Below, piece by piece: positions 1 to 44,240 of a stretch of DNA of 44,240 bases. Each line of letters opens with the position of its first letter. Position 1 is the first letter of the stretch. The notes beneath the pieces are model-generated. The model was given only the letters and a program-made list of their open reading frames with translations, had not been told where the DNA came from and searched no databases. Where the stretch lies: contig LSNL01000007.1 in NCBI GenBank assembly GCA_003056145.1, forward strand, positions 1 to 44,240, given 5' to 3'. The stretch is from Parcubacteria group bacterium M10-OD1-1 (GTDB lineage: Bacteria; Patescibacteriota; Minisyncoccia; Moranbacterales; UBA2206). The translations under genes were made by a program, and so were the position numbers.

Positions 1-534
1 TTTTGTTTTTCCTTCTGCTTCTATATTTTCTTTAATTAAAGCTTCCGTAGATAAAAGTGAATAGGTATTTCCTTCAATAGCTGAAGACTTCCACGAAAAC
101 TCAATCATTATTCTTTCAAATTCTTTATTGATTAAAGTTTGACTATCATACTTTGAGAAATTTTTTATAAATTCAGTCTGCAATTCTTCAATCTTGTTTT
201 TTTCCTCTATCGTGAAAATATCATTTTCCAAAATTTTAAAAATCTTAAAATTAAAACTTTCTTTTACATTTCTTCTTAAATATGGTGTCGCAAAATATTT
301 TCCAGAATCGATTGGTAAAAATATTTTATTTAGATCCGTAATGCTGTATTTCACACCCCTTCCGGATCCGGTCTTTGAGATAAATCCTTGCTCTTGTAAA
401 TAGTTTAAATCTCTTTGTAAGGTTGTTCTTTCTATTGATTTTCCAAGAAAATCTAAAATTTCAGAGTTAGAAACAGTATTTTTACTCTGGATGAAGTTAA
501 TAATCTTTTGTTGTCTTTGTTGTCTTTTTCTCAT
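1..534 (-). CDS. Fic-family protein with N-terminal HTH (partial, runs off window start)
   Basis: Not in ORF track. Manual translation from ATG at 534 gives MRKRQQRQQKIINFIQSKNTVSNSEILDFLGKSIERTTLQRDLNYLQEQGFISKTGSGRGVKY (wHTH-like), then ...FSWKSSAIEGNTYSLLSTEALI. SxxIEGN is typical of Fic-domain N-terminal regions. Confidence 0.8.
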   Translation of the reverse strand, partial: MRKRQQRQQKIINFIQSKNTVSNSEILDFLGKSIERTTLQRDLNYLQEQGFISKTGSGRGVKYSITDLNKIFLPIDSGKYFATPYLRRNVKESFNFKIFKILENDIFTIEEKNKIEELQTEFIKNFSKYDSQTLINKEFERIMIEFSWKSSAIEGNTYSLLSTEALIKENIEAEGKTK

Positions 535-554
535 ATTATATATAATAACATATA

Positions 555-648
555 ATTGCTGCATTTTCAATCACTTATTGCTGCATTTTATATTACTTTT
601 TTAAAGAATCCCTTCAAAGTTAAGACTTTATTGCTGCATTTTATATTA
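555..648. repeat. Three direct repeats ATTGCTGCATTTT (555-567, 577-589, 630-642); copies 2 and 3 share 21 bp; probable operators
   Basis: Seen in sequence. Copy 1 lies in the spacer of a putative minus-strand TTGAAA-17-TATTAT promoter just upstream of the HTH-Fic ATG. Confidence 0.7.
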
Positions 649-776
649 TTACTTGTGACATTTTATTTTTAAAATCGCATCAATTTGATGAAATTTAATC
701 TTACCTCCAACCAACTTCTTTCAACTTTGGATTTATATAATCTCTTTTTGTTTGCTCTTCGTTCACAAGACTTAAT

Positions 777-1277
777 TTACTTTTTTTCAAAAACTTCTTC
801 AAAGAAATTTGCTACTTTATCTTTTAATTCATTAAAGTCCATGTTTTGTTTATTTTTTGAAGCAATGATAATTGCCAAATGATACATAGCAAAGCCAATT
901 GGAGTAAATCCTTCAAAATCATTAATCTCAAAATCTCTAAACAATGTCTGTAAAATCTCTAAAAATTCATCTTTTGATAATTCTCTTGAAGTATAATTAT
1001 TTTTTTCAAGAAAAAATACCGTACTAGTCATAGCCAATCGCTTATTTCCATTGGAAAAATAATGTGTATTTATATTAATAAAAAGAAAAGAAGCTTTATC
1101 AAAAATGCTAGGATAATAATCTGTTTTTGAACGATCTATCAAAGAAAAATATTTATCAATTCCTTCTCTTTCTTGATCATAATTAGGCACTTCTTCTTGA
1201 TATTCATAATCAAAGCTATTGATAGTGTCAATAATTTCAATTAAATCTTCTGGAGTAATATATTTAATATCTTTCAT
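777..1277 (-). CDS. Doc/Fic (death-on-curing) family toxin
   Basis: HYFSNGNKRLA matches the Doc-type HxFx[DN]GNKR motif; 166 aa. Confidence 0.85.
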   Translation of the reverse strand: MKDIKYITPEDLIEIIDTINSFDYEYQEEVPNYDQEREGIDKYFSLIDRSKTDYYPSIFDKASFLFININTHYFSNGNKRLAMTSTVFFLEKNNYTSRELSKDEFLEILQTLFRDFEINDFEGFTPIGFAMYHLAIIIASKNKQNMDFNELKDKVANFFEEVFEKK

Positions 1278-1288
1278 GCATTTATAAC

Positions 1289-1462
1289 CTACGTACTCCC
1301 TAGTTTTTTAATTGCACTTCCATACTTTTTTTTAACAGTTTTGGCAACTGATCCACTTTTATACGCACCTAAAATTTGCCCTTTGCGACCTGCAGAGGTT
1401 GTACGCTGACGAATAGCATAATATTTGCCAGTAGATGGATTGTGTATACGTTTTTGTCCCAT
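1289..1462 (-). CDS. Small basic protein, putative Doc antitoxin (57 aa, start re-called at MGQKR)
   Basis: 11 nt upstream of Doc. C-terminus VKKKYGSAIKKLGST resembles the C-terminal helix of Phd-type antitoxins. Confidence 0.55.
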   Translation of the reverse strand: MGQKRIHNPSTGKYYAIRQRTTSAGRKGQILGAYKSGSVAKTVKKKYGSAIKKLGST

Positions 1463-1576
1463 ATATTTATATTTAAACAATATCATTAAATGCGACATTT
1501 TCAAAGTCTAATTCATCATCCACAATTTTCTTCAATCCCCAAAATGCTCTTTTGCCTTCGACAAGAAGTTTGTTTA

Positions 1577-2119
1577 TTAAATTTTTTGTTTTTTTATAAT
1601 TTGATTCATTCTCTCTATATATTCTTCAAATTCTTTTTGAAAATCATCTTCATTCTTAAAAAATATTTCTCCTTTTGCATGCAGTCTTTCATTTCTTTTT
1701 TTTATCGGTAAAGATAAATTTCTAACTGAACCAAAGTCAAACCCTAGCAAATAGAAAAAATCGAATATATCTGATTCTCTTATTGTAGAAAAATTAAAAG
1801 GCGTTGTTATTTTATTTTTAAAATCACTATTCCTACTTTTTGTCCTGTAATTATTTACGAAATATTCAAACTCTGTCATAATCTCATTGTTCTTTTCACC
1901 CTCTTTTTGTTTTATCTCTTCAAATATTTTAGACATTCTAAAAATTTGAATATACACAAATGTCATATACAAAATATGCAAATGTGTATAAGCACTTGTA
2001 AAAAGATCATTCTCTGAACAACCCCAGAAATGTTCCAAATGATGTTTTACATATTCCGACAGCCTAAGCTCTGAATAGCCCAATGGAAAATATTCTATTA
2101 TTTGATATTGTTCGTCCAT
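1577..2119 (-). CDS. Helical protein with RxxxxH motif, putative HEPN domain; probably frameshifted (continuation to 1473)
   Basis: KRNERLHAKG gives R-x4-H. After the A7 run (1589-1595) the -1 frame reads KNLINKLLVEGKRAFWGLKKIVDDELDFENVAFNDIV*, stopping 10 nt before the next ATG. Confidence 0.5.
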   Translation of the reverse strand: MDEQYQIIEYFPLGYSELRLSEYVKHHLEHFWGCSENDLFTSAYTHLHILYMTFVYIQIFRMSKIFEEIKQKEGEKNNEIMTEFEYFVNNYRTKSRNSDFKNKITTPFNFSTIRESDIFDFFYLLGFDFGSVRNLSLPIKKRNERLHAKGEIFFKNEDDFQKEFEEYIERMNQIIKKQKI

Positions 2120-2144
2120 GATGATTTTCTTATAAGAATTTTAA

Positions 2145-3212
2145 TTAAAAATATTCATTAAAAATAAGAGCTAGTTTTTTATAAAAATCTGATTGTTTTA
2201 AATTCTTATGACAGTATTTGCTTACATTTGATTTAGATTTTTTTGTATATTTTTTCAAAGATATTTCCCATAAATCAGATTTCTTTTCCGTTATTAATTC
2301 TAAAAATAAACCATCTTCATTGTAACATTCCCAATGTTGAGAAGTTTGGGATATTTCTTTGATAGCCCAGTCATATTTTATTTTCAGTTTTCCAAAATCA
2401 TTTCTAACTTCTCTCACATTTTTATATCTTTTGTCTAAATCAATATTTAGACATTTATTGATTATCCTCTTTAATTTGCTATGAACATGAGGTAAATATT
2501 TTTTTCTATCAGGAAACTTTCCAAATATAATTTGCTCTTTTAATATTTTTTTATTTTTAAAATCATCCCATTGTTCAGAAAAATAAGAATTTCCATTTAG
2601 TAGTCTGTATAAAGTAACTCCTAGCATGTAAATATCACTTTGTTCATCAGCTTCTTTTTTTTGACCTGATAACTTTTCTGGCGGGTAGTGTGCAGTATAT
2701 ATTTTCTTGAATATGCTTGATCCATCTTTATTTTTTATATTTGCTAATCCAAAATCAGATAATTTATATATATTTTCGTTTTTGATAAGAATATTACCAG
2801 GTTTAATATCTAAATGAAGTATTTGTTTAGTATGAGCATGTTCCAATGCATGTAAAACACATTCTGAAATCTTAACAATTTGTTTTGTAGGCAAGAAAAT
2901 AGTTTTATTAAGAATATCTTGCACACTTCCATTTTCTAAAAATTCCATTCTTATGCTAAATCCAGGTTTTATAAATTCTGCATCATAAATATCTACAATA
3001 TATTGAGATTTTCTTAAATATTCTAAAACTGAAGATTCAAATAAATTATCATTAAGTTCTTTGGCAATATCTTTTTCTGTTTTTCCTTTAATAGGAATTA
3101 TTTTTACAGCTTCTTTTCTTAGAAGATATGTATTTTCACAAAGTAAAACATCTCCAAAATTTCCGTCAGAGGATATTTTACTCAAAAATTTTAATTTATT
3201 TGGTATTTGCAT
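2145..3212 (-). CDS. Hanks-type Ser/Thr protein kinase
   Basis: DGNFGDV (Gly loop), AVKII, HLDIKPGNIL, KLSDFGLA, YPPE, DIYMLG, plus a ~70 aa C-terminal extension. Confidence 0.95.
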   Translation of the reverse strand: MQIPNKLKFLSKISSDGNFGDVLLCENTYLLRKEAVKIIPIKGKTEKDIAKELNDNLFESSVLEYLRKSQYIVDIYDAEFIKPGFSIRMEFLENGSVQDILNKTIFLPTKQIVKISECVLHALEHAHTKQILHLDIKPGNILIKNENIYKLSDFGLANIKNKDGSSIFKKIYTAHYPPEKLSGQKKEADEQSDIYMLGVTLYRLLNGNSYFSEQWDDFKNKKILKEQIIFGKFPDRKKYLPHVHSKLKRIINKCLNIDLDKRYKNVREVRNDFGKLKIKYDWAIKEISQTSQHWECYNEDGLFLELITEKKSDLWEISLKKYTKKSKSNVSKYCHKNLKQSDFYKKLALIFNEYF

Positions 3213-3215
3213 AAT

Positions 3216-3683
3216 TTAAAAAGTTTCTTTCAAAGAAAATAAAAATACCAATCCATCAAGTAATTTGTCTGATTTTGCTATACTATAGTTTTTTAATACT
3301 TCATTTTTATTTTTTTCTAATAACGCTTTAAAATCTTTATTCGAAATAGATAATTTTTCCCTAACTGTAACAAGAGTGAGTTCTAAAATATGTAAATTAT
3401 TTTGATAACAATAAAGATTCAAAATGGCAGAATTAGCAAATCCTTCCTCATCTTTAATTACACCCCTGCATTTTTGAGGCGATTGATATGCAAAAGCACT
3501 GGGAGAATACCTTGTTTGTATATGTGATATTTCATCTAATATCTTGTTATATTTTTCTCCTTTATTCATCGCAGATTCTAGTGATATTTTTTCTTTCTCA
3601 CCAAAAATCAAATTTCCAGAATTGATCGTACATTCTAAAAAATGTATTTTCTCTTTTTCAAATCTAAATAATATAATTTTCAT
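3216..3683 (-). CDS. Hypothetical protein, RNase H/RuvC-like fold with degenerate active site
   Basis: Pattern parallels RuvC: KIILFRFEKEKIHFLEC; KILDEISHIQTRYSPSAFAYQSP; AILNLYCYQNNLHILELTLVTVREKL; DKLLDGLVFL. By-eye inference. Confidence 0.5.
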   Translation of the reverse strand: MKIILFRFEKEKIHFLECTINSGNLIFGEKEKISLESAMNKGEKYNKILDEISHIQTRYSPSAFAYQSPQKCRGVIKDEEGFANSAILNLYCYQNNLHILELTLVTVREKLSISNKDFKALLEKNKNEVLKNYSIAKSDKLLDGLVFLFSLKETF

Positions 3684-3694
3684 AATAATTTATT

Positions 3695-4288
3695 TTACTC
3701 TCCCCAAACTTCTGCGATTTTGGTTTTGATTTTCTTTTCAAAAATTTTAATGAGTTTCTTGTTTTGATTTACCATTTCTTGCTCGGCTTCAATTTCAGAA
3801 ACAATTTTTTCTTGAATTTTTAGTGGTGGTAAAAATATTTTTTGAGTATAAGCATCTTCTCTATTTAATCCAGGTATTCCTGCACCACCTCGCAATTTCT
3901 GTAATTCTAATTTTTGAAGAATGTTAAAAATAAATTTCAAATTATCATTTCTTTTTAATTTTACATAATAAGTTGTATCTATTGGAAAACAATTCTCTTC
4001 AACCCATACAACTTCACCAGCAGAACCCTTTCTTCCAACAATTATGGAAGGCCCTTTAATTAAGTATTTATTATGATACCCACTTATTCCATTTGAACCC
4101 ATTACTGGATATTTTCCATCAACCCTATCTCTCTTAGGTAAACTTTTACCATACTCTAAACTTAATACTTCTTTCAGCTCGACCATCTCCCAATCACTCT
4201 CAATTTTAATATTTGGTTTCCAGTTTTCTACAACCTGCTTTGCTCCGTCAATGACTTTTTGATAAGAATCTAATTCTTCAACAATTTG
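3695..4288 (-). CDS. hsdS: HsdS specificity domain (second TRD plus coiled-coil spacer), disconnected 3' part of the HsdM-S fusion
   Basis: LEYGKSL, YPVMGSNG, IIVGRKGSAG, IPGLN...IFLPPLKIQEKIVSEIEAEQ. The frame is open upstream of the track ATG (4186) to ~4288: QIVEELDSYQKVIDGAKQVVENWKP. Confidence 0.9.
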   Translation of the reverse strand, partial: QIVEELDSYQKVIDGAKQVVENWKPNIKIESDWEMVELKEVLSLEYGKSLPKRDRVDGKYPVMGSNGISGYHNKYLIKGPSIIVGRKGSAGEVVWVEENCFPIDTTYYVKLKRNDNLKFIFNILQKLELQKLRGGAGIPGLNREDAYTQKIFLPPLKIQEKIVSEIEAEQEMVNQNKKLIKIFEKKIKTKIAEVWGE

Positions 4289-6036
4289 TTTTTTTCAACA
4301 TTTTTTACTGTTATCATTGGAATACCCATTCCTTCAGTTATACTTTTGAAATCTAAATTTTTTAACAAACTATAAATATATTTTGTTAAAACTTTTTTAT
4401 TATTTAAACTAACCGCAATAGTTGTTTGGGTACAAGTAAAATCTTCTAAATTTGGCATCTTTACAGAACCAATTGTCCCTCTAGCACCAATTACTAAAGT
4501 ATTTTTACTAAATGATAGTTTTGTTTTTTCTGTAAAATTCCAAGGTTTTTCAGATGTATCTGCACTAAAAATTGCTTTTCCTTTTCCAGTTAAATCTTTC
4601 TTTATTAAAGTCTCTCCCATTCTTATATTAGCAATTTCTTTTAAATTAAAAATATCAAATTTCACATTAGAATAATCGACAACTTCTCTATATCTATCAC
4701 CAGTTAAATTATAATCTCCACTCTCTGCAATCTCTGATTTCTTTACTGCAAAAGCAACTTTTTGACCTTCTTTAACTTTTTGTTTTTCTTTCCACTCTTT
4801 CAAAACTTCTAAAGCTAACGGAAAATCATTTTTATCAATTTCTCGTCTTTGTGCTCCTAAATCAAAACCATCATTTTCTATTTTTATGAATAAAACTTCT
4901 TTTTTCTTTTTTGTTATATCGTTATCAAAAAGCAAGATGGAAGTCTTAACTCCAGAATACGGATTAAAAACTCCTGACGGTAAAGACACCACCGCATACA
5001 AACCATCTTCAACTAAAATTTTTCTCAATTTTTTATAAGCATTTGCTGATTGAAAAATAATTCCCTCCGGCACAATAATTCCTGCTCGCCCTTTTGGTCG
5101 CAAGTGTTCTACAATATAATCTACAAAAAGTACTTCGGCTCTATTTGCTTGAACACCAAATTTTGAATGTGGTTCTATTCCGCCTTTTGGAGTCATAAAT
5201 GGTGGATTGGCTAGAATAATATCAAAATCTTCATCCCAGTTATCCGTACTGGATAAAGTATCATAAACTCTAATATCTGGATTTTTGAATTTATGTAAAT
5301 AAGTATTGACTTGTGCCGTTCGCACCATATTTGAATCAATATCATATCCAGTAATATTTTTGTGAATTTTTGCTCGCTCTGCTGAAGTTAGTGGTTTTTC
5401 TTTATTTGTTGGTTTACCTGTTTTGTTATCAAGCCCATCATGAGCTTCTAAAATATGCTTATAAGCTGAAATCAAAAATCCACCAGTTCCACAAGCTGGA
5501 TCTAAAATTTTATCTTCTTTTTGTGGATCAATAGCCTTAACAATAAAATCAATAATATGCCGTGGTGTTCTAAATTGTCCCGCATCTCCTTGAGAACCCA
5601 TAATGCTTAAAAGATACTCATAAGCATTTCCTAATTCTTCAGAATTATCATATTGAAATTGGTCAATTTCTGAAAGAAATAAACCTAGTGTTCGGGGATC
5701 ATTAAAAGGTAAGTAAACATTTTTGAAAATATCTCTAAAAAGTTGCGGTATCTTATTATTTTCCGGAATTCTTTTTAATGCCTCTAAAAATAAATTTAAT
5801 TTTTCTTGATTTCCAAGACGACTGTCCATTAAATTATGCCAAGAATATTTTTTGAAATCTCCTGTGAAAAAACTGCCATTACCACCTAATTTTCTAGATT
5901 GCTCGTCCATATCATCCATAAACTTATAAATCAAAGCGGTGGTGATAAGATCAACCTGTTGCATTGGGTTTGGCAAAACTCCAACTAAAACTTGCCTAGC
6001 ACCATCTATCCTTCTTTTTGTTTCTGCTGTTAACAT
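4270..6036 (-). CDS. hsdM: Type I N6-adenine methyltransferase fused to first HsdS TRD (HsdM-S fusion, truncated by frameshift)
   Basis: GQFRTPRHI, ILDPACGTGGFL, ILANPPF; the C-terminal ~130 aa are TRD-like (GARGTIGSV, GIPMITV). Confidence 0.93.
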   Translation of the reverse strand: MLTAETKRRIDGARQVLVGVLPNPMQQVDLITTALIYKFMDDMDEQSRKLGGNGSFFTGDFKKYSWHNLMDSRLGNQEKLNLFLEALKRIPENNKIPQLFRDIFKNVYLPFNDPRTLGLFLSEIDQFQYDNSEELGNAYEYLLSIMGSQGDAGQFRTPRHIIDFIVKAIDPQKEDKILDPACGTGGFLISAYKHILEAHDGLDNKTGKPTNKEKPLTSAERAKIHKNITGYDIDSNMVRTAQVNTYLHKFKNPDIRVYDTLSSTDNWDEDFDIILANPPFMTPKGGIEPHSKFGVQANRAEVLFVDYIVEHLRPKGRAGIIVPEGIIFQSANAYKKLRKILVEDGLYAVVSLPSGVFNPYSGVKTSILLFDNDITKKKKEVLFIKIENDGFDLGAQRREIDKNDFPLALEVLKEWKEKQKVKEGQKVAFAVKKSEIAESGDYNLTGDRYREVVDYSNVKFDIFNLKEIANIRMGETLIKKDLTGKGKAIFSADTSEKPWNFTEKTKLSFSKNTLVIGARGTIGSVKMPNLEDFTCTQTTIAVSLNNKKVLTKYIYSLLKNLDFKSITEGMGIPMITVKNVEKNKLLKN

Positions 6037-6040
6037 AATT

Positions 6041-8572
6041 TTATCTATAAATATTTGTATTAATATAATCCTTTACATAAGTTGGTATTTTTTTCCTATA
6101 ATTTTCTGGAACATTTTCCAAGTCCTCCATAGTAAGTTTTGGATTAGTTGCTAGCTGATTAAATTCTTTAGTGTCAATAATATTTTCTATTTCTTTATCC
6201 TCAATGTAAGTATTAAAAAAATATTTTGTTTTTGCATATTCGTCTGGTGCTACTTCTCCCATTTCTGTTGCTCTAAACTTTTCAAATTCACTATCAAGCA
6301 ATTCTTCTTTTGTCTCAAATCGCTTTTTCTTTCCAAAAGCATAATCTAAAAGTTCATTCATTCTTACTCGTCTATCTAATTTTAATGCTTTTCTAATTTT
6401 ATCTAAATTCATAAAGTTTTTAGGCTTATCAAAAATTTGCACTCTAATAATATCACCAGCCTCTTGATAATTATTATTTTCTATCAATTTTTCTAACTCT
6501 TTATTTGTTTTTAAATCTTCATCAATAAATTTAGAAAATGCCTCTCTGTCTATCCTCATTCCGTCTTCACCGATTTTTGTTTTTTCTTTTGTCTTTATTT
6601 TATCTTCGGACTTAAGATCTATTTCATCAGCTATCGCAGGAACTAGTCCAATGCTAATATCCTCTTTTTTTCCCTCTTTTGGTAGTTCTAATATTTCATC
6701 ATAATCAAAATCTTCTTCAAAATATTGATAGTTAGCAAAAAAATCAAATAAATAAAAGTTATCTTTCTTTCTTGCTATTTCTTCTCTAGTTTCTGAGTCA
6801 ATGTACTTAAAAATATTTTTTCTAGTACCTCTTCCTTTGATTTGCACAAAATCAGATGGGGAAAATATCGGTCGCATTAATACAAGATTTAAAATATTCG
6901 GACAATCATAGCCTGTTGCCATCATCCCAACCGTAACTGTAACCCTCGATTTACTCGTTTTATAACCTTCCAAAAATTGGCTTGTGCCATTGAGTCGATC
7001 ATTAGCAAAATCAACAGTCATTTGTTGTGCTCCTTGCACATGAGAGGTAATTTGAACTGCAAAATCAGACTTATATTTTCCTAACCATTTCTGCATCGCT
7101 AACTTATTTAAAATACTTGTAATTTTAGCAGCATGATTTTGGCTAACTGCGAAAATAATCGTCTTGCCAATTTCACCGCTAACTGGATCAAGCTTTGCAT
7201 TATTTAAAAAAGCCTTACAAAATTGAACATTTGTTTCTTCATTAAAAAATCTTTTTTCAAAATTTCTTCCAAAAAAAGTTTCCTCGATTTCTTTTCCATT
7301 GTCATCAACGGTATGTACGGCATAACCCTCTTCGGATAAAAGTTCAGTAGTAATTTCTGTACGAATATCTAAAACATACGGATTAACTAAATATTTTGGC
7401 ACACCATCAGCTAAGCTAAATCTATAGGTAGGCTCTCCAGACTCACAACCAAAAGTTTTATAAGTATCTAATAATTGTCTTTTTTCATAAGCTCGTTGTG
7501 AATTTTGTTTAACATCTTCGTCAACTCCTTTTAAATACTCTTTTGGCGTAGCCGTTAGCCCAAGTTTAAATCCTACAAAATATTCAAAAACTGCTCGAGC
7601 ATTTCCACTTATTGACCTGTGAGATTCATCAGAAATAACAAACTCAAAATCAGTTGGTGAAAACTCTTTTTTATATCTGTCATTTGAAGCTAAGCTTTGC
7701 ACAGTTGAAATAACTATATGTGCATTTTTCCAAGTATCTCTTGATTCTTTATAAACAGCTATTTGATAATCTTTTTCTAAATAATCCCTAAAAGCTTTTT
7801 TTGCTTGATCTTCTAATTCCAACCTATCCACCAAAAATAATATCCTCTTAGCATTGCCCGTTTTAAGAAATAATTTTGAAATAGCCGCTGTAGTCAAGGT
7901 TTTTCCTGTTCCAGTCGCCATCTCTAAAAGATATCTAGTATTTCCTTTTTTGGCTGATTCTTGAATAGCGTAAATTGCCTCTAGCTGATAATCTCTTAAA
8001 ATTCTTACCCCTGTTTTAAATAAATAATCATTTTTTTCTTCCTCTGTTCCATTTTGCCACAGTGGATTATTTTGAAAGCTTAGATTTTTTGAAAGAGCAA
8101 TATAATCTTCACCCACTTCTTCTAGTGATAATCTTTCTGGATTCGGATTGTATTTACTAAATTCAGCTAATGATTCTTGTGTAGGGAATTTAATAATTAT
8201 TTCTGGATTTCCTTTTTCAATATCCCAAAGATAATGGATATTTCCATTCGATAAAATAACATAACGAGCATGATTTGTTCTGGCATATTTTCTAGCTTGA
8301 TCTTTTGCACTTAAAGGATTTATACTTTCTTTCTTTGCCTCTAAAACTACCAAAGCTTTTCCGTCTTGATCTAATAACAAATAATCAATATAGCCATCCT
8401 TTGTCATTTCAAAATTATCTCCCTGACTATTTATATCTTCTTTTTTAATCTTTACATTTGGCTCTAGTTGAATATTTGCCTCTCCATTTTCATCATCAAA
8501 AAACCGCCATCCTGCTTCTTCAAGAAGTTTGTTTATTTTTATTCGTGCTTTTGCCTCCTTTGCAGTTGTCAT
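6041..8572 (-). CDS. hsdR: Type I restriction endonuclease subunit R (EcoAI/EcoEI-like)
   Basis: DYLLLD...VLEAKK (PD-D/ExK nuclease), MATGTGKT, DESHR, LTATP, ATGYDCP, QIKGRGTR. Confidence 0.95.
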   Translation of the reverse strand: MTTAKEAKARIKINKLLEEAGWRFFDDENGEANIQLEPNVKIKKEDINSQGDNFEMTKDGYIDYLLLDQDGKALVVLEAKKESINPLSAKDQARKYARTNHARYVILSNGNIHYLWDIEKGNPEIIIKFPTQESLAEFSKYNPNPERLSLEEVGEDYIALSKNLSFQNNPLWQNGTEEEKNDYLFKTGVRILRDYQLEAIYAIQESAKKGNTRYLLEMATGTGKTLTTAAISKLFLKTGNAKRILFLVDRLELEDQAKKAFRDYLEKDYQIAVYKESRDTWKNAHIVISTVQSLASNDRYKKEFSPTDFEFVISDESHRSISGNARAVFEYFVGFKLGLTATPKEYLKGVDEDVKQNSQRAYEKRQLLDTYKTFGCESGEPTYRFSLADGVPKYLVNPYVLDIRTEITTELLSEEGYAVHTVDDNGKEIEETFFGRNFEKRFFNEETNVQFCKAFLNNAKLDPVSGEIGKTIIFAVSQNHAAKITSILNKLAMQKWLGKYKSDFAVQITSHVQGAQQMTVDFANDRLNGTSQFLEGYKTSKSRVTVTVGMMATGYDCPNILNLVLMRPIFSPSDFVQIKGRGTRKNIFKYIDSETREEIARKKDNFYLFDFFANYQYFEEDFDYDEILELPKEGKKEDISIGLVPAIADEIDLKSEDKIKTKEKTKIGEDGMRIDREAFSKFIDEDLKTNKELEKLIENNNYQEAGDIIRVQIFDKPKNFMNLDKIRKALKLDRRVRMNELLDYAFGKKKRFETKEELLDSEFEKFRATEMGEVAPDEYAKTKYFFNTYIEDKEIENIIDTKEFNQLATNPKLTMEDLENVPENYRKKIPTYVKDYINTNIYR

Positions 8573-8851: not shown

Positions 8852-9922
8852 TTAATTTAATCTTTTAAGAACTTCATCGCCCATTTGTTGAGTAGTCAAC
8901 TGACGGCAACCATCCGACATTATATCGGCTGTCCGTAATCCGTCAGCTATGGTTTTTTTAACTGCTGTTTCAATGACCACAGCTGCTTCCTCCAGATTAA
9001 AACTGTAACGGAGCATCAACGCCAAAGAAAGAATCTGCGCCAAAGGATTAGCAATCCCCTTACCAGCAATATCAGGAGCACTGCCACCAGCTGGCTCGTA
9101 CAGTCCAAAATTGGTTTCTCCATTAATACTTGCACTCGGCAACATACCGAGCGAACCAGTCAGTTGAGCAGCTTCGTCTGACAAAATATCACCAAACATA
9201 TTTGAGCAAAGAATAACATCAAATTGCTTGGGATCGCGAACTAACTGCATCGCCGCATTATCCACATATAGATGACTACATTCCACCTCTGGATATTCAT
9301 TAGCAATTTTGCCAACAATATCCCTCCAAAGCTTACTGCACATTAACACATTGGCCTTATCAATTGAAACAACTTTTTTGTTTCGTTTCATTGCGATTTG
9401 AAAAGCACAATGAGCAATACGTTCAATTTCACTTTGACTGTAAGTCATAGTATCAACAGCAGTATTACCATCGATACTCTTTGGTTCAGCAAAGTAAATT
9501 CCACCGGTCAGCTCTCTAACCACCAAAATACTCAATCCTTTTAAAAATTCTGGTTTCAGAGAAGAAGCGTTCTCAAGACCATCATAAACTATTACTGGTC
9601 GCAAGTTAGCAAATAAACCATATCTTTTGCGCAACGGCAAAAGAGCTCCTTGCTCTGGTGTTAGCTCCGAAGGCAAATCAGCCCATTTGGGACCGCCGAT
9701 ACTACCAAACAAAACGGCAGCAACTTCATCGCATATTTTTTTGGTTTCCTCCGGAAAAGGGTGTCCAGTTTCATCATAAGCAACTCCTCCAATAAGACAA
9801 GTTTGCTTTTCAAATTTGATCCCAAATTCATTTTCAATGACATTTAAAACTCTAAGTGCCTGAGTCATAACCTCAGGACCAATTCCGTCACCCGGTAACA
9901 CAGCTATTTTCTTATTCATCAT
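8852..9922 (-). CDS. leuB: 3-isopropylmalate dehydrogenase
   Basis: [62 protein letters not shown]. Start re-called at ATG 9922 with AAGGAGG SD at 9931-9937. Confidence 0.97.
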
Positions 9923-9938
9923 TTTTTTTACCTCCTTG

Positions 9939-10451
9939 TTAGTAATTTTTAGCAACAAAGCCAACTAGGCCATCTTCACGCACCAGTCGTTCCGCAAATT
10001 CATCTAGCGAAAAACGAAAGATTAAACCATTGTTGCATTTAATCTGTTTCTCATTAAGGTCAACTTCACAATTAACCATTCGTCCGGCTGCGTTAAACAT
10101 CTGATCAATTTCGCTTTGGCTAATTTCAATCGCCAGTAATCCTCTATTGAACATATTTTGTCGAAAAATTCTGGCAAAACTTGGAGCAATCACTACTTTG
10201 AAATCATTTGCCTCAAGCGCCCAAACAGCATGTTCACGAGATGAACCACAACCAAAATTTTCTTGAGCAATTAAAATAGTTGCTTCTTGAAAATCTTGAT
10301 TAGATTGACTAAAGCCCGGCATATCCAAATCCTCAAAAAGATGAGGACCAAGACCACTAATACTAATTCCAGTAAGATACTTAGCAGGAATAATTTGATC
10401 AGTGTCTATGTTTGCACGATCAAGAAAATAAACTTTCTCTTGAATTTTCAT
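9939..10451 (-). CDS. leuD: 3-isopropylmalate dehydratase small subunit
   Basis: [34 protein letters not shown]. Confidence 0.96.
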
Positions 10452-11711
10452 TTATATTACCTCCCTAGGATCAGTTATAAATCCTCGCAAAGCTGTAGCC
10501 GCGGCAGTATCCGGACTCATCAAATGAACTGTACCACCCTTCCCCATACGCCCAGGAAAATTACGGTTAGTTGTAGAAGCACAAACCTCTCCTTTAGCCA
10601 AAACACCGCTAGACATCCCCAAGCAAGCACCACAAGTCGGGTTGGTAAAGCAAGCACCAGCTTGAATAAAAATTTCCGCTAGTCCTTCTTGAATAGCTTG
10701 TATTTGAACTTGGGTTGTGGCTGGAGATACAATCATACGCACGGATTTAGCAATATGTTTACCTTCCAAAATCTTGGCCGCTATTCGCAAATCAGTAATC
10801 CGTCCATTAGTGCAACTACCAAGATAAACTTGATCAACTTTTGTTCCAGCCATTTCAGTAACAGATTTAACTTGACTTGGATTACTACCAAAAGTGACTT
10901 GTGGTTCTAACAAAGATAAATTGAATAAAAGATCTTTGTCATATTGAGCATCACTATCGGGTTGCCAATCCCAAATCAAAGATTCTATTTCTAGATTTCT
11001 CTGTCGGCAGTATTCAAGAGTTTGTCCATCGGGATAACAAAGACCGGAAGTGGCACCAGCTTCAACACTCATATTGCAGATTGTCATCCGACTTTCCATA
11101 TCCATGTTTTCAATAATTGGACCACAAAACTCAATGACATAATCAGTTGCACCTTTTACTCCCAGTTGCGAAATCAGATACAAAATCACATCTTTGGCAT
11201 AAACATTTTCAGATAATTTGCCATCAAGCTGGATTCTCATTGTTTTAGGTTCGCGGAAAAATACTACACCCTTAAGAATTGCTGCTTCTAAATCGGTGGT
11301 GCCGATACCAGCAGCAAATGCTCCAAAAGCGCCGTGAGTACAAGTATGAGAATCGCCACAAACGATGGTCATACCTGGAAGAACATGTCCCTGTTCTGGC
11401 AAAAGAGCGTGACAAACTCCATTACTACCAACATCATAAAACTTAATGTCATGCCGTCTAACCCAATCACGCATTACTTTTCCTTGTAAAGCAGTGGCGC
11501 TGTCTTTAGCTGGATTAACATGGTCAATCAGGGCAACAATCTTATTGGGATTGAAAACTTCATCGCCCCATTTGTTTTGAATATCCAAAATTGCTGGTGG
11601 CGTAGTGATTTCGTGACACATTACCAAATCAACTTCTAAAGCTACTGTACCAGCTGATGGTCGATCAATAATATGACCATCAAAAATCTTTTGAACTAAT
11701 GTCTTACCCAT
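10452..11711 (-). CDS. leuC: 3-isopropylmalate dehydratase large subunit (short ~420 aa type)
   Basis: CHEIT, GVCH, DSHTCTHGA, GSCTNGR, CGACLG (Fe-S cysteines), TNRNFPGRMG. SD AAGGAGG at 11721-11727. Confidence 0.96.
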   Translation of the reverse strand: MGKTLVQKIFDGHIIDRPSAGTVALEVDLVMCHEITTPPAILDIQNKWGDEVFNPNKIVALIDHVNPAKDSATALQGKVMRDWVRRHDIKFYDVGSNGVCHALLPEQGHVLPGMTIVCGDSHTCTHGAFGAFAAGIGTTDLEAAILKGVVFFREPKTMRIQLDGKLSENVYAKDVILYLISQLGVKGATDYVIEFCGPIIENMDMESRMTICNMSVEAGATSGLCYPDGQTLEYCRQRNLEIESLIWDWQPDSDAQYDKDLLFNLSLLEPQVTFGSNPSQVKSVTEMAGTKVDQVYLGSCTNGRITDLRIAAKILEGKHIAKSVRMIVSPATTQVQIQAIQEGLAEIFIQAGACFTNPTCGACLGMSSGVLAKGEVCASTTNRNFPGRMGKGGTVHLMSPDTAAATALRGFITDPREVI

Positions 11712-12017
11712 TTTTCAATACCTCCTTTTTTAAATTAATGGTTCTTTGATTGTTAAATAGCTCTTCTTACTTAAGCAAATTAAACTAGAAAAATCAAATT
11801 TATCTATCCGTCTTTATTATTTCAAAAAAAATTAAGCCCCGCCTTCTATCTTAAAAGAAAACCAAAAGGAATTTTTCTTTTACTAACATAACGTACCAAC
11901 CATAAATTTTACCTTTCTTTCTCGTTATTTTTGGACAAGCTTTTTTTGAGAACAGGGGAAAATCTTATCCAAGAAAGACAAAACCTGTAACTAACGCTAC
12001 GATTACCAAAAAATCAA

Positions 12018-12045
12018 AGAAAAGAAAAGTCGGCAAAATGCCGAC
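12018..12045 (-). terminator. Intrinsic terminator after tRNA-Leu
   Basis: GTCGGC-ATTTT-GCCGAC stem followed by TTTTCTTTTC on the minus strand. Confidence 0.8.
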
Positions 12046-12056
12046 AAGTTAGATTC

Positions 12057-12143
12057 TGGTGCCCGGAGCGAGACTTGAACTCGCACGGTATTACTACCGA
12101 GGGATTTTAAGTCCCTTGTGTCTACCAATTCCACCATCCGGGC
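12057..12143 (-). tRNA. tRNA-Leu (TAA), CCA encoded
   Basis: GCCCGGA...TCCGGGCACCA; anticodon loop CTTAAAA; long variable arm. Confidence 0.97.
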
Positions 12144-12188: not shown

Positions 12189-12206
12189 ATAATATTTTCC
12201 TTTTTG

Positions 12207-12277
12207 AGGTCGCGCCCGGATTTGAACCGGGGTGAAGGGTTTTGCAGACCCACGCCTAACCGCTCGGCCACACGACC
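12207..12277 (-). tRNA. tRNA-Cys (GCA)
   Basis: GGTCGTG...CGCGACC-T; anticodon loop CTGCAAA; T-loop GTTCAAATC. Confidence 0.97.
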
Positions 12278-27508: not shown

Positions 27509-27915
27509 GGGGATGTTGTAGATTAGACAGGTTGTACATTTAAAATACGCAAGCCGAGAATGATAAAAAACTCGTTAACTTTTATCAAAAGTTATAAGTG
27601 CAAACTTCATAACCAAAGCAAAATCTGCAATTGCTAACGCTTTTGTACCTAATTTTGCGACTGCTATCGCCTAATCCTGTTTCCCAGGAAGCTTTAGCCA
27701 TCAAACTGTCCACTCCCGATAGACAGAGCTTGGTGTTATATTTCGGGATAGCAAATTTTTTTATTTTCAAGAATTATTTGTAAAACTAAATTGAAAATAA
27801 GTTAAGAAACTTTTTGTTTATTTATTGTTCTTAACTGAAATTACTAAATAAACTAAGCTTGTAGATTATTTTAGGTAAACAATTTTGGACATGGGTGCAA
27901 TTCCCATCATCTCCA
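27509..27915 (+). ncRNA. ssrA: tmRNA
   Basis: GGGGATG/CATCTCC acceptor stem with G.U pair, discriminator A then CC; T-arm ATGGG-TGCAATT-CCCAT; tag ORF 27600-27674 ANFITKAKSAIANAFVPNFATAIA*; directly after smpB. Confidence 0.95.
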
Positions 27916-27951
27916 CCGCTAAAAAATATTTTAATAATTAAAATCAAACCT

Positions 27952-41427: not shown

Positions 41428-41804
41428 AATCATACGATTTAATCAAAAGTAGCCGCACATTTCAAAAATACATTAGAAATTAACAAAGATATATTTTCTT
41501 TTTAGTTTTTGATGCCCAATTCAGTAGCTGAGCTTTATAGACACAATTTTAAAAAGTATCCTCAGGAAAATTAAAAGTCACCCATTTTTGCTCAATTAGT
41601 AAAATATTTACTAGAAAATATTTTAAATGCATCAAAAACAATCAAAAATAGGCAAACTGCTTTAGAAAAATCAACCAACAATTCACCTTCTGAAAGTTCT
41701 CTCATCCAAAAAGCATAGGTGAAGACCGAAAATTTCGGTTGTCTCTTGATTAAATTGAAATATTTGCTATAATCAGGTTACTTTAGATTTTTAAAAAAAT
41801 ATAT

Positions 41805-41879
41805 TCCGCGATAGCTCAATGGTAGAGCAGTTGACTGTTAATCAATTGGTTGTAGGTTCGAGTCCTACTCGCGGAGCCA
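41805..41879 (+). tRNA. tRNA-Asn (GTT), CCA encoded
   Basis: TCCGCGA...TCGCGGA-GCCA; anticodon loop CTGTTAA. Confidence 0.97.
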
Positions 41880-41919
41880 AAAAAAATACAGAGTTAACTC
41901 TGTATTTTTTTTGGCTCCG
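41872..41919. terminator. 48-bp perfect palindrome/terminator overlapping the tRNA-Asn 3' end
   Basis: CGGAGCC-A8-TACAGAGTTAACTCTGTA-T8-GGCTCCG. Confidence 0.85.
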
Positions 41920-42056
41920 AACTCTGAACGAAATCCGAACTTTTTTTAAGGAAAATCCGCAAGCGGATTTAGAAGACTGACCACGCACGGAGCGTGTGGT
42001 AGCTCTGACTTCTTTCTTACGCTCCGATGAAATAGGTAATTTAATCGGTGCGTTTC

Positions 42057-42090
42057 CTCTCGCCTCCGCTCCGGCGAAACAAAACAGAAA
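42057..42090 (+). repeat. Repeat A, copy 1 (34 bp)
   Basis: CTCTCGCCTCCGCTCCGGCGAAACAAAACAGAAA, identical at 43995-44028; contains a TCGCC/GGCGA hairpin. Confidence 0.95.
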
Positions 42091-42295
42091 CGCGCGCGAG
42101 CTACAAGAGGTCGGTGAGGACATCGATGAAATTTCCGAAGACATTGAAGAGATTGGTGAAGACATCGACGAAATGTCTGAAGATGACGAAGAAGATGAAG
42201 AACATCGAAAAATACAAAATGTTATATTGGGCAAACTTACGAAAGATATCCAGCGCATCCTCGATGACCTTGAGACTCTGAAGCACTCGAGGTAA
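42083..42295 (+). pseudogene. 3' remnant of an acidic-repeat membrane protein gene (DUF1003-like, tentative)
   Basis: NRNARELQEVGEDIDEISEDIEEIGEDIDEM...DDLETLKHSR*; no plausible start; begins within the end of repeat A. Confidence 0.55.
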
Positions 42296-42297
42296 GA
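42266..42297 (+). repeat. Repeat B, copy 1 (32 bp)
   Basis: GACCTTGAGACTCTGAAGCACTCGAGGTAAGA; second copy at 43788-43819 with one mismatch. Confidence 0.95.
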
Positions 42298-42411
42298 CAC
42301 GAATACCAACAAGAAACTTCTTGGACTTCAAAATTAATCATTTTTTTATAAAAAAATAGCATCGGATTTTATTCCAATGCTATCAGATATGAACTGAAAG
42401 AACTTTTTAGA

Positions 42412-42630
42412 TTAGAACTGCCACCACTTTTTGCGTGGTTTTGGTTCTTCTAATAACTCTGTAATCTGCTCGACAATGAACTTATGTCGACCAGCAGTAC
42501 GATTAACGCTTATTAGGCGCATTATAACATCTCTCTTCCGTGCCCCGCAAAGGGCGTTTGCAAGTTCATCTACAAACCTTGCATCTTCTTTAAGTTGCTC
42601 CTTGGTTCCTTTGAAATATATTGTCGACAT
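42412..42630 (-). CDS. 72-aa hypothetical protein ending KPRKKWWQF
   Basis: SD GAGGGG at 42640-42645; 19 nt downstream of the DHH gene. Confidence 0.7.
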   Translation of the reverse strand: MSTIYFKGTKEQLKEDARFVDELANALCGARKRDVIMRLISVNRTAGRHKFIVEQITELLEEPKPRKKWWQF

Positions 42631-42649
42631 AATCTTTAGCCCCTCTAAT

Positions 42650-43459
42650 TTAGTTAGTATGTTTTAAAAACTCCTCAACTTTATCTTGATTGGCGTACCC
42701 TCCCCAAAAGGCGGTTTTACCCGCTTCCCCGAGACCAGCACCGCCTGACCAACCGTCAAATTTTTCCTGAAGTTTAAAACAAATTTCTCCGTCTCCGGAA
42801 AAATTTGTTTCTCCGTCTCCGGAAAAGACCACATACTGAGGAATATCTTCTCCCTCAGTAAAATTCAGAATGGCGAAGTAGTCCCCCACAGGACCACATT
42901 TCGAGTGACTCATACGAATCACCCGAATGGAGCCAACCATCTCAACAGGAGCATTCAAGGCCCTGCTGATTTCCGCCATCATATCCTCTGTAACCCCCTG
43001 AAGACTGCTGTCTTCATGCCGGATTTTTTTCACCTCCTCCTGCGTGGCAGGCGGTGACAAGAAACCCGTGCCGGGAATTTCCAGTGTGCCAGCAAGACCA
43101 GGAAACCAACCTGCATCGTTGGCAGCCACAATATGATCCCAACGAGTCGGCGGAACGCCGAGCAAATCAAGCACCTGCAATATAGCAGGTGGCTCATTCA
43201 CTCTGTCATTGTGATGATCAATCACGACTGCCGTTTCCGGCAAGTCGCAGTCAACCTCCAGCTCAATTAGAACTGGAATCTTCCCGGTTTTGGCAACCGC
43301 GGCGAACTCCTGTTCGCCGTAATCGGACGCTTTTGCGCCCCAGCCTAAACCCGCGTCGCGGACCTCGCAGCCCGCTTTTTCAAGAACTTCCGCGATGCGC
43401 GCCATTTCGGCGTCTGCACCGCCGAGAAAAAATACATAATTATTTAACTTGTTGTCCAT
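42650..43459 (-). CDS. DHH-family phosphodiesterase, NrN-like
   Basis: FLGGADAEM, VIDHHN, VAANDAGWFPG, IRHED...QGV, CGPVGD, FWGG. SD AAGGAG at 43467-43472. Confidence 0.8.
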   Translation of the reverse strand: MDNKLNNYVFFLGGADAEMARIAEVLEKAGCEVRDAGLGWGAKASDYGEQEFAAVAKTGKIPVLIELEVDCDLPETAVVIDHHNDRVNEPPAILQVLDLLGVPPTRWDHIVAANDAGWFPGLAGTLEIPGTGFLSPPATQEEVKKIRHEDSSLQGVTEDMMAEISRALNAPVEMVGSIRVIRMSHSKCGPVGDYFAILNFTEGEDIPQYVVFSGDGETNFSGDGEICFKLQEKFDGWSGGAGLGEAGKTAFWGGYANQDKVEEFLKHTN

Positions 43460-43555
43460 GATTTATCTCCTTAGATATTACGCCTTCATCATATTAGAAT
43501 CCGGCAATTTTATCCGCCCCAACACCGTTGGTTCAGAAATTAAAATTCATCGACT

Positions 43556-43609
43556 CTTGCGAGCAACGTTTTAACTATAAAAAATTACAATCAAAACATT
43601 GCTCGCAAG
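43556..43609. repeat. 17-bp inverted repeat (1 mismatch), 20-nt spacer
   Basis: CTTGCGAGCAACGTTTT ... AAAACATTGCTCGCAAG. Confidence 0.9.
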
Positions 43610-43732
43610 CACTTTGCACTCAACAAATTGAAAACGGAGTACATTTCATCGTGTTTTCAAAGAACAGCATTCAGATTTAAACAAATCTACTAATTAGTAA
43701 AGCATATTGAAGTTCATTTGTCAAGGACATGT

Positions 43733-43774
43733 ACTGAATTAACACTTGAGGTGCACGTCAAGTGTTAATTCAGT
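43733..43774. repeat. Perfect 17-bp inverted repeat, 8-nt loop
   Basis: ACTGAATTAACACTTGA-GGTGCACG-TCAAGTGTTAATTCAGT. Confidence 0.95.
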
Positions 43775-43787
43775 CTTAACAGTACGC

Positions 43788-43819
43788 GACCTTGAGACTC
43801 TGAAGCGCTCGAGGTAAGA
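43788..43819 (+). repeat. Repeat B, copy 2
   Basis: GACCTTGAGACTCTGAAGCGCTCGAGGTAAGA. Confidence 0.95.
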
Positions 43820-43877
43820 TATTAGGGTTGTAAACGAACTGATAAAAGTTTACGATTAAAAACTTCAAAATAAGTGA

Positions 43878-43950
43878 GGGCCATTAGCTCATCTGGTAGA
43901 GCGCATCCATGGCATGGATGAGGTGAGCGGTTCGAGTCCGCTATGGTCCA
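43878..43950 (+). tRNA. tRNA-Ala (GGC)
   Basis: GGGCCAT/ATGGTCC acceptor with G3.U70; anticodon loop ATGGCAT (A32-U38, typical of Ala-GGC). Confidence 0.96.
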
Positions 43951-43994
43951 CAAACGCGAACTTCGTTCGCAGACAGCACAACACGACCGCGCTA

Positions 43995-44028
43995 CTCTCG
44001 CCTCCGCTCCGGCGAAACAAAACAGAAA
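43995..44028 (+). repeat. Repeat A, copy 2
   Basis: Identical to 42057-42090. Confidence 0.95.
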
Positions 44029-44240
44029 TTTTTTCAATACATTTTTTTAATTTTTTTCTGCCCCCATTTTTTTCTTTTAATAGGAATTGAAAAATTTTCT
44101 GTTTTGATTTCCTCTTAATCAGAGAAAAGCGGAAACGCTCTATTTTTAATCGCAAAAGGGCAAAAATTCCTTCCCCCAGACCCCCTTCCTTTTTGCCCTT
44201 TTGTTTTTCGGGCTTCGCCCGATTTACACAGTACGTAGTC

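Follow-up and report, generated by a model that had tools for sequence, protein, structure and literature searches.

A horizontally acquired leuC-leuD-leuB operon without a synthase gene in a variable island of a Moranbacteria genome

We analysed a stretch of 44,240 nucleotides (the window), covering positions 1 to 44,240 of contig LSNL01000007.1 in assembly GCA_003056145.1 of Parcubacteria group bacterium M10-OD1-1, with a focus on an operon for the middle steps of leucine synthesis. Three contiguous minus-strand open reading frames (ORFs) fill exactly positions 8852-11711 and contain no frameshifts or stops, and together with their family scores they bear out the intact leuC-leuD-leuB operon which an initial annotation of this DNA had placed there. 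The source genome is labelled G000 in the following, the window contig C1 and a second contig C4. The operon and its leader contain the following features:

11712-12028, minus strand: operon leader with a promoter-like TTGAAA-17-TAAATT (11825-11797, by consensus match only) and a ribosome-binding site
10452-11711, minus strand: leuC, isopropylmalate isomerase large (Fe-S) subunit, short type, 419 aa (NF001614, Pfam Aconitase)
9939-10451, minus strand: leuD, isopropylmalate isomerase small (swivel) subunit, 170 aa (TIGR00171), its start abutting the leuC stop
8852-9922, minus strand: leuB, NAD-dependent 3-isopropylmalate dehydrogenase, 356 aa (TIGR00169), in an ORF that extends to a TTG at 9964 (370 aa)

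The true start of leuB is probably the ATG at 9922, since the public gene call (P0121) has the same 356 aa and the alignments to solved LeuB structures begin there. The ribosome-binding site of leuC is AAGGAGG, 8 nt 5' of the ATG, and no Rfam family, T-box included, matched the leader RNA at gathering score. The GC content was 0.407 for leuC, 0.403 for leuB and 0.363 for leuD (operon 0.40), as compared with 0.306 for the genome, in line with the initial description of the operon as more GC-rich than its flanks, and its genes rank at the 94th-98th percentile among the 624 ORFs of the genome. The GC content at third codon positions (GC3) was 0.23-0.32 against a median of 0.20. Because much of the excess falls at codon positions 1 and 2, where it follows amino-acid composition, GC content on its own is a weak argument for transfer. 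Pfam and NCBIfam scans of the larger window ORFs revealed only restriction-modification, kinase, sugar-metabolism and translation genes, and no leuA, ilv, aminotransferase or other amino-acid biosynthesis gene was found in the window, in agreement with the initial annotation.

Relatives of the encoded proteins were sought among 5.8 billion proteins. The closest form a group, here called clade A, of about 23 LeuC at 66-78% identity and about 18 LeuB at 63-87% identity, while outside this clade identity falls to 60-65% in Desulfuromonadales/Geobacteraceae, Spirochaetota, Brevinematia and Clostridia. LeuC scored 548.6 bits with NF001614 (cut-off 385) and also exceeded the cut-offs of TIGR01343 (494.2 bits) and TIGR02086 (454.2 bits). 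It fell below the equivalog cut-offs of TIGR00170 (392 vs 560 bits) and TIGR02083 (LEU2; 438 vs 611 bits), two models which may not cover short-type LeuC, since the nearest relatives from true leuACDB clusters share the short type. The homoaconitase models HacA/HacB (NF040615 and NF040604) were rejected, with 428 vs 550 and 90 vs 230 bits, respectively. The LeuC motif GDSHT was present in 24/24 clade-A sequences, the Fe-S ligands C300, C360 and C363 were invariant in a 20-sequence clade alignment, and a simple motif search found GSCTNG, CGACLG (Cys ligands) and NRNFPGR in most clade-A sequences, a few of which carry variants.

LeuD scored 144.5 bits with TIGR00171 (equivalog cut-off 116.25) and carries the GSSREHA motif; it is of the bacterial type, and its closest solved structures are those of Campylobacter jejuni (3q3w) and M. 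tuberculosis (3h5j), with 108 bits. LeuB scored 508.1 bits with TIGR00169 (equivalog cut-off 353.2). It shares about 60% identity with its Haemophilus and E. coli counterparts and aligned end to end with the H. influenzae structure 6xxy (452 bits) and the enterobacterial (E. coli/Salmonella) structures 1cm7 (440 bits) and 1cnz, with 438 bits as the lowest score. Compared with the solved structures, its substrate, metal and NAD motifs are unchanged, including GSAPD and the isopropyl-pocket residues Glu and Leu-Leu (E-G-LL-LR), and the substrate-pocket and NAD motifs were each found in most of 19 clade members. At the functional residues that are known, the window proteins show no difference from the solved LeuB and LeuD proteins, and what sets them apart is their genomic context alone. 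Identity as a tartrate/D-malate dehydrogenase (TIGR02089, 244 vs 470 bits), a homoisocitrate dehydrogenase (AksF2, 264 vs 540 bits) or an isocitrate dehydrogenase (ICDH, 222 vs 510 bits) was rejected for LeuB, as all scores were far under the cut-offs. Comparison of the source genome with the copy in the metagenome-assembled genome (MAG) G457 gave dN/dS values of 0.07 for leuC and 0.10 for leuB, with dS saturated. Judged from their sequences, LeuC, LeuD and LeuB are intact, canonical and under purifying selection. The proposal that the enzymes were repurposed found no sequence support, given the identity of LeuB to the E. coli and Haemophilus enzymes, the kept motifs and the low scores with alternative dehydrogenases. 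Of the short-type, Methanocaldococcus-like pair suggested at the outset, only the length of LeuC stood, while LeuD and LeuB proved to be bacterial types.

The assembly comprises 865,987 bp in 7 contigs with 97% completeness and 0.03% contamination, and the genomes of relatives range from 0.6 to 1.4 Mb. The window also encodes transfer-messenger RNA (tmRNA), SmpB, IF3, EF-P, S6, SSB, TrpRS and RNase J, and the RNase J is 66-78% identical to proteins of Candidatus Moranbacteria/Moraniibacteriota MAGs. The assignment of the genome to the Candidate Phyla Radiation (CPR; Moranbacteria) is sound, as the initial annotation had supposed for the contig, and the leu genes are physically linked with CPR housekeeping genes.

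The remainder of the pathway was then sought genome-wide, a check that had been proposed for leuA, cimA and ilv genes. No match to LeuA (TIGR00973) or to the HMGL-like family PF00682 (LeuA, CimA, homocitrate and Re-citrate synthases) was found in the genome even at E<=1, while 14/14 control genomes matched in this search. IlvD (PF00920), the acetolactate-synthase N domain (PF02776) and citrate synthase (PF00285) likewise had no genome match; IlvC was not searched. With genuine LeuA proteins as queries, tblastn detected no remnant in the genome nor beside four clade-A operons. Since the synthase, citrate-synthase-type enzymes, IlvD and acetolactate synthase are missing, the genome is unable to make the substrate of the module.

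One class-IV aminotransferase is encoded in the genome (C4:134691-135521; L076:1411-2241). It scored 190 bits with the branched-chain aminotransferase (BCAT) subfamily PRK08320 (cut-off 363) and 170 bits with a D-amino-acid transaminase model, also below cut-off, and its best PDB matches were tied between 7p8o (class-IV transaminase), which we take to be a D-amino-acid transaminase, and 5mqz (archaeal BCAT). The gene is separated by 23 nt from a preceding HxsC-like radical-SAM gene and lies near a Dph6-like PP-loop ATPase, and it may be part of an HxsC-like peptide-maturation locus, not of amino-acid metabolism. Other enzymes of the genome include a DapL-like aminotransferase beside lysA, serine hydroxymethyltransferase and the alpha subunit of a 2-oxoacid:ferredoxin oxidoreductase (OFOR), while Leu/Glu dehydrogenase was not found in the genome.

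The operon lies at a position where the synteny of the family is broken. In at least 10 same-family genomes the order is a 3D-domain protein, tRNA-Cys, tRNA-Leu(taa) and a conserved 7-gene block, which in several of them is followed by tRNA-Ser(cga). On C1 of the source genome, the stretch between tRNA-Leu and the contig end instead holds leuCDB, a type I restriction-modification (R-M) system, a kinase and small ORFs. The 7-gene block is found at C4:3292-9122, after another HsdR-like gene (C4:753-3059). Because relatives carry the 7-gene block where the source genome has leuCDB and R-M genes, the operon is placed in a variable island. The boundary and the other features of the island are:

12206-12277, minus strand: tRNA-Cys(gca), belonging to the conserved 3D-protein / tRNA-Cys / tRNA-Leu anchor
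12057-12143, minus strand: tRNA-Leu(taa), island boundary, with a terminator-like hairpin at 12045-12029
6041-8572, minus strand: hsdR of the type I R-M system, island
4270-6036, minus strand: hsdM fused to a specificity domain (hsdM-S), island
3695-4186, minus strand: separate, half-size hsdS, island
2145-3212, minus strand: Ser/Thr kinase, island
777-1277, minus strand: Fic/DOC-like ORF, island
1-570, minus strand: DeoR-like ORF, island (hypothetical ORFs also lie within 1-8572)

The island genes at 1-8572 have no counterpart at the corresponding position in relatives. The insertion amounts to at least 15 kb, and some relatives carry other small insertions at the same site. The island is split by the contig end and so partly unseen; no integrase domain was detected among the island ORFs scanned in the visible part, and a search for an att-type direct repeat of the 3' end of tRNA-Leu gave nothing above 10 nt. 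Clade-A LeuC was absent from 318/318 other species genomes of the order (best 60% identity) and from samples of 400 genomes each drawn from the class and the phylum. Horizontal acquisition by the source lineage, as claimed initially, is well supported by the broken family synteny together with this absence.

Maximum-likelihood (ML) trees of LeuC and LeuB agreed with each other, showing clade A (SH-aLRT 99) as sister to a mixed Desulfobacterota/Spirochaetota/Bacillota group. The LeuC of other Patescibacteria branched further out than this mixed group in the ML tree. The approximately unbiased (AU) test did not reject joining clade A with the other Patescibacteria LeuC (p = 0.1), and a definite outside donor is therefore unproven. 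The canonical leu genes of Desulfuromonadales/Geobacteraceae, Spirochaetota and Clostridia (Malonomonas rubra DSM 5091, Geobacter spp.), with LeuC 60-65% and LeuB 60-64% identical, share the gene order leuC-leuD-(x)-leuB, a short-type LeuC of about 420-430 aa and the catalytic motifs. They belong to prototroph genomes and have a true leuA directly upstream of leuC, a bona fide gene in Malonomonas rubra and a related MAG (TIGR00973, 742-748 bits), whereas the source genome has no leuA, ilvD or acetolactate synthase. As these nearest non-CPR relatives stand in canonical leuA-leuC-leuD-leuB clusters, the enzymes descend from true leucine genes.

Three other clade-A operon contexts were examined, in the Patescibacteria MAGs L075 (Modern_marine.mb.304) and L272 (binchicken_co196_455) and on the metagenome contig L192 (Ga0066637_10003526). 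All three resemble the source operon in the order leuC-leuD-leuB, in a LeuC that is 71-77% identical, in GC above that of the flanks and in the lack of a leuA nearby. The flanking genes differ every time, and only L192 has IorAB-like genes upstream: an IorA-like (TIGR03336, 619 bits) and an IorB-like gene at L192:3033-5333, which immediately precede leuC on the same strand. An IorA 66% identical to that of L192 occurs in the clade-A carrier G457, while IorA-like genes are absent from G000 and G1078. The IorAB-like oxidoreductase was thus not accepted as a general partner, being found in 2/4 clade-A hosts and missing from G000, and is kept as a lead only. Two further features of these contigs were recorded. 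L192 carries a TnpB/Cas12f-TNB fragment downstream of leuCDB, and a 232-aa ORF at L075:848-1546 matches the TFIIB repeat PF00382 with 39.5 bits (cut-off 23.6), in a MAG that is bacterial given the presence of SmpB.

To place the source genome among other Patescibacteria, 20 genomes with any LeuC homologue were searched for HMGL-like, Iso_dh and IlvD proteins. The complete pathway (LeuA-like, IlvD and LeuB) was present in 9/20 genomes, while the synthase and IlvD were missing from the other 11, in which an Iso_dh gene always adjoins the LeuC gene. Ten of these 11 are of the leuCD type, and seven of the 11 are at least 95% complete, including the single-contig G490. The remaining genome, the same-family relative G695, was dropped from the leuCD-leuB count, as its locus (G695:C86, L094:3259-6271) is a true aconitase (PRK07229, 983 bits) adjoining an ICDH-like dehydrogenase. 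Citrate synthase, whether Si type (PF00285) or Re type (HMGL-like), is absent from G695, whose pair is a second kind of synthase-less isomerase and dehydrogenase module. Among the ten leuCD-type carriers, G000 and G457 belong to clade A, G470 has separate, Desulfuromonadales-like genes (LeuB TIGR00169 499 bits), G007 has a fused 648-aa LeuCD with an actinobacterial-type LeuB (PRK03437, 460 bits), and the other six have fused LeuCD with divergent dehydrogenases. Because the LeuB types differ and the copies of G470 and G007 fall outside clade A in the LeuB tree, synthase-less modules have at least three origins. In family f182 the module follows atpD-atpC, a position conserved in two genera. No conserved partner gene was identified next to the synthase-less modules, the neighbours being unrelated housekeeping genes (ATP synthase, FtsX, AspRS, LytB, MreC). 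The genes are ordinary members of known families, and it is their repeated synthase-less context in CPR which is unusual; a partial literature search found no published account of synthase-less leuCDB in CPR.

In the same order, 16 other genomes without a LeuC homologue encode HMGL-like proteins, which measure about 530-630 aa and score 127-257 bits. These proteins were not counted as LeuA and are candidates for an OadA/PycB-type carboxylase subunit or an orphan synthase. The carriers include G022, G042, G484, G489, G687-G689 and G694, and some of the 16 share genera with carriers of synthase-less leuCD-leuB.

The locus is best explained as a horizontally acquired and, as far as its sequence tells, working isomerase and dehydrogenase module in a defence-rich island by tRNA-Leu(taa). 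For its role, the best reading is that it finishes an intermediate made by another organism, which is plausible and corresponds to the alternative named in the initial annotation, where the intermediate was host-derived. Another organism would supply a 2-alkylmalate, either 2-isopropylmalate or the related citramalate/citraconate, which would presumably be taken up from outside; LeuC and LeuD (4Fe-4S) would isomerise it to the 3-alkylmalate, and LeuB would decarboxylate this oxidatively to the 2-oxo acid (4-methyl-2-oxopentanoate) with formation of NADH. The single class-IV aminotransferase could then turn the 2-oxo acid into leucine. We hold this full route from external 2-alkylmalate to leucine only tentatively, at somewhat less than an even chance. 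Several observations weigh against it. The DASS dicarboxylate transporter was absent from 20/20 genomes (other transporter families were not searched), and no conserved neighbour able to supply or import the substrate was found. Intracellular isopropylmalate pools are normally small, so salvage instead of leucine uptake is not obviously useful. The aminotransferase scores alike with D-amino-acid and branched-chain models and lies beside the HxsC-like gene, and it was rejected as a module-specific partner since class-IV aminotransferases occur at a similar frequency in module-free relatives (26/60) and in carriers (5/8).

The same enzymes could instead serve energy conservation: an external alkylmalate-type acid (isopropylmalate, citramalate/citraconate, or D-malate formed from maleate, which covers the initially suggested route from maleate over D-malate to pyruvate) would be converted into a 2-oxo acid and further into acyl-CoA by a 2-oxoacid:ferredoxin oxidoreductase, yielding NADH, reduced ferredoxin and ATP by substrate-level phosphorylation and not leucine. 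The IorAB-like genes directly upstream of leuC on L192, the related IorA of G457 and the OFOR alpha subunits of G000, G007, G470 and G742 fit such a role, as do the missing Leu/Glu dehydrogenase and the ambiguous aminotransferase of G000. However, the IorAB adjacency was seen once and IorA-like genes are missing from G000 and G1078, OFOR is not discriminating since it is widespread in relatives without the module, and LeuB keeps its isopropyl pocket and scores low with the tartrate/D-malate model. We regard the catabolic role as unlikely. A broader proposal, that CPR repeatedly fixed a mid-leucine isomerase and dehydrogenase but no synthase (at least three times in the class) and siphon off alkylmalate from their host or community either for leucine or for burning by ferredoxin oxidoreductases, is conceivable and leans towards the unlikely side.

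Finishing of an external intermediate also has to be weighed against the absence of any role in this host. The genes could be passengers which arrived recently on a mobile or defence island, their intactness stemming from selection in earlier hosts; they lie in a variable region with two restriction systems, the operon is unique within the order, its GC3 is still above the host median, and a LeuB 87% identical elsewhere means that the transfer could be fairly recent. Yet frameshifts and stops are absent, a strong ribosome-binding site is retained, GC3 is mostly ameliorated toward the host, 2.9 kb of useless DNA would be unlikely to last in an 866-kb genome, and at least three other lineages have each independently fixed modules of like content, with the f182 position after atpD-atpC conserved. 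A passenger status seems quite improbable. Finally, the pathway could be complete after all, with synthase and ilv genes in the unassembled part or with a non-homologous enzyme making 2-isopropylmalate. The assembly does consist of 7 contigs at 97% completeness with the island cut by a contig end, and nine other Patescibacteria have full sets. On the other hand, the assembly would need to have missed leuA, ilvD, ilvB and, by implication, ilvC, at least four separate genes or families; the same pattern recurs in eleven genomes, seven of them at least 95% complete and one (G490) in a single contig, and no LeuA remnant is present near any of the four clade-A operons. We consider a complete pathway very improbable.

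The usual picture of CPR/Patescibacteria is that of host-dependent bacteria without amino-acid synthesis. The source genome has gained, and apparently keeps under selection, two consecutive mid-pathway activities with no means to make their substrate. Buchnera, an obligate symbiont, offers a known case of complementary-pathway retention, as it lacks the terminal transaminase ilvE, which the aphid supplies. The two are alike in having a reduced genome with part of the branched-chain pathway and, under the external-supply reading, a partner that provides the rest. They differ in that Buchnera retains the early steps and leaves the final one to its host, whereas the source genome is without the first committed step and its module was gained, not retained. 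If the substrate is truly external, such modules would mark the exchange of pathway intermediates between epibiont and host, and the genes could hint at the identity of the host, because their nearest non-CPR relatives are of the Desulfuromonadales type. If siphoning is real, it would represent an undescribed metabolic dependence on intermediates and not on end products. Should the module prove to be a passenger, or its specificity ordinary and any supply route missing, the case would be one of routine gene transfer.

Two other features of the window were recorded. The tmRNA lies at 27509-27917, directly after smpB, and its predicted tag peptide is unusually long (ANFITKAKSAIANAFVPNFATAIA). 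At 41800-44240, a GC-rich segment (0.45-0.55) between tRNA-Asn (41805-41879) and tRNA-Ala (43878-43951) contains a 34-bp direct repeat (42057-42090 and 43995-44028) and a 48-bp inverted repeat (41872-41919), and about 220 bp of it recurs at the start of contig C2. It also holds a 269-aa ORF (42650-43459) with a GC content of 0.505 and no Pfam match, and the segment looks like a mobile cassette.

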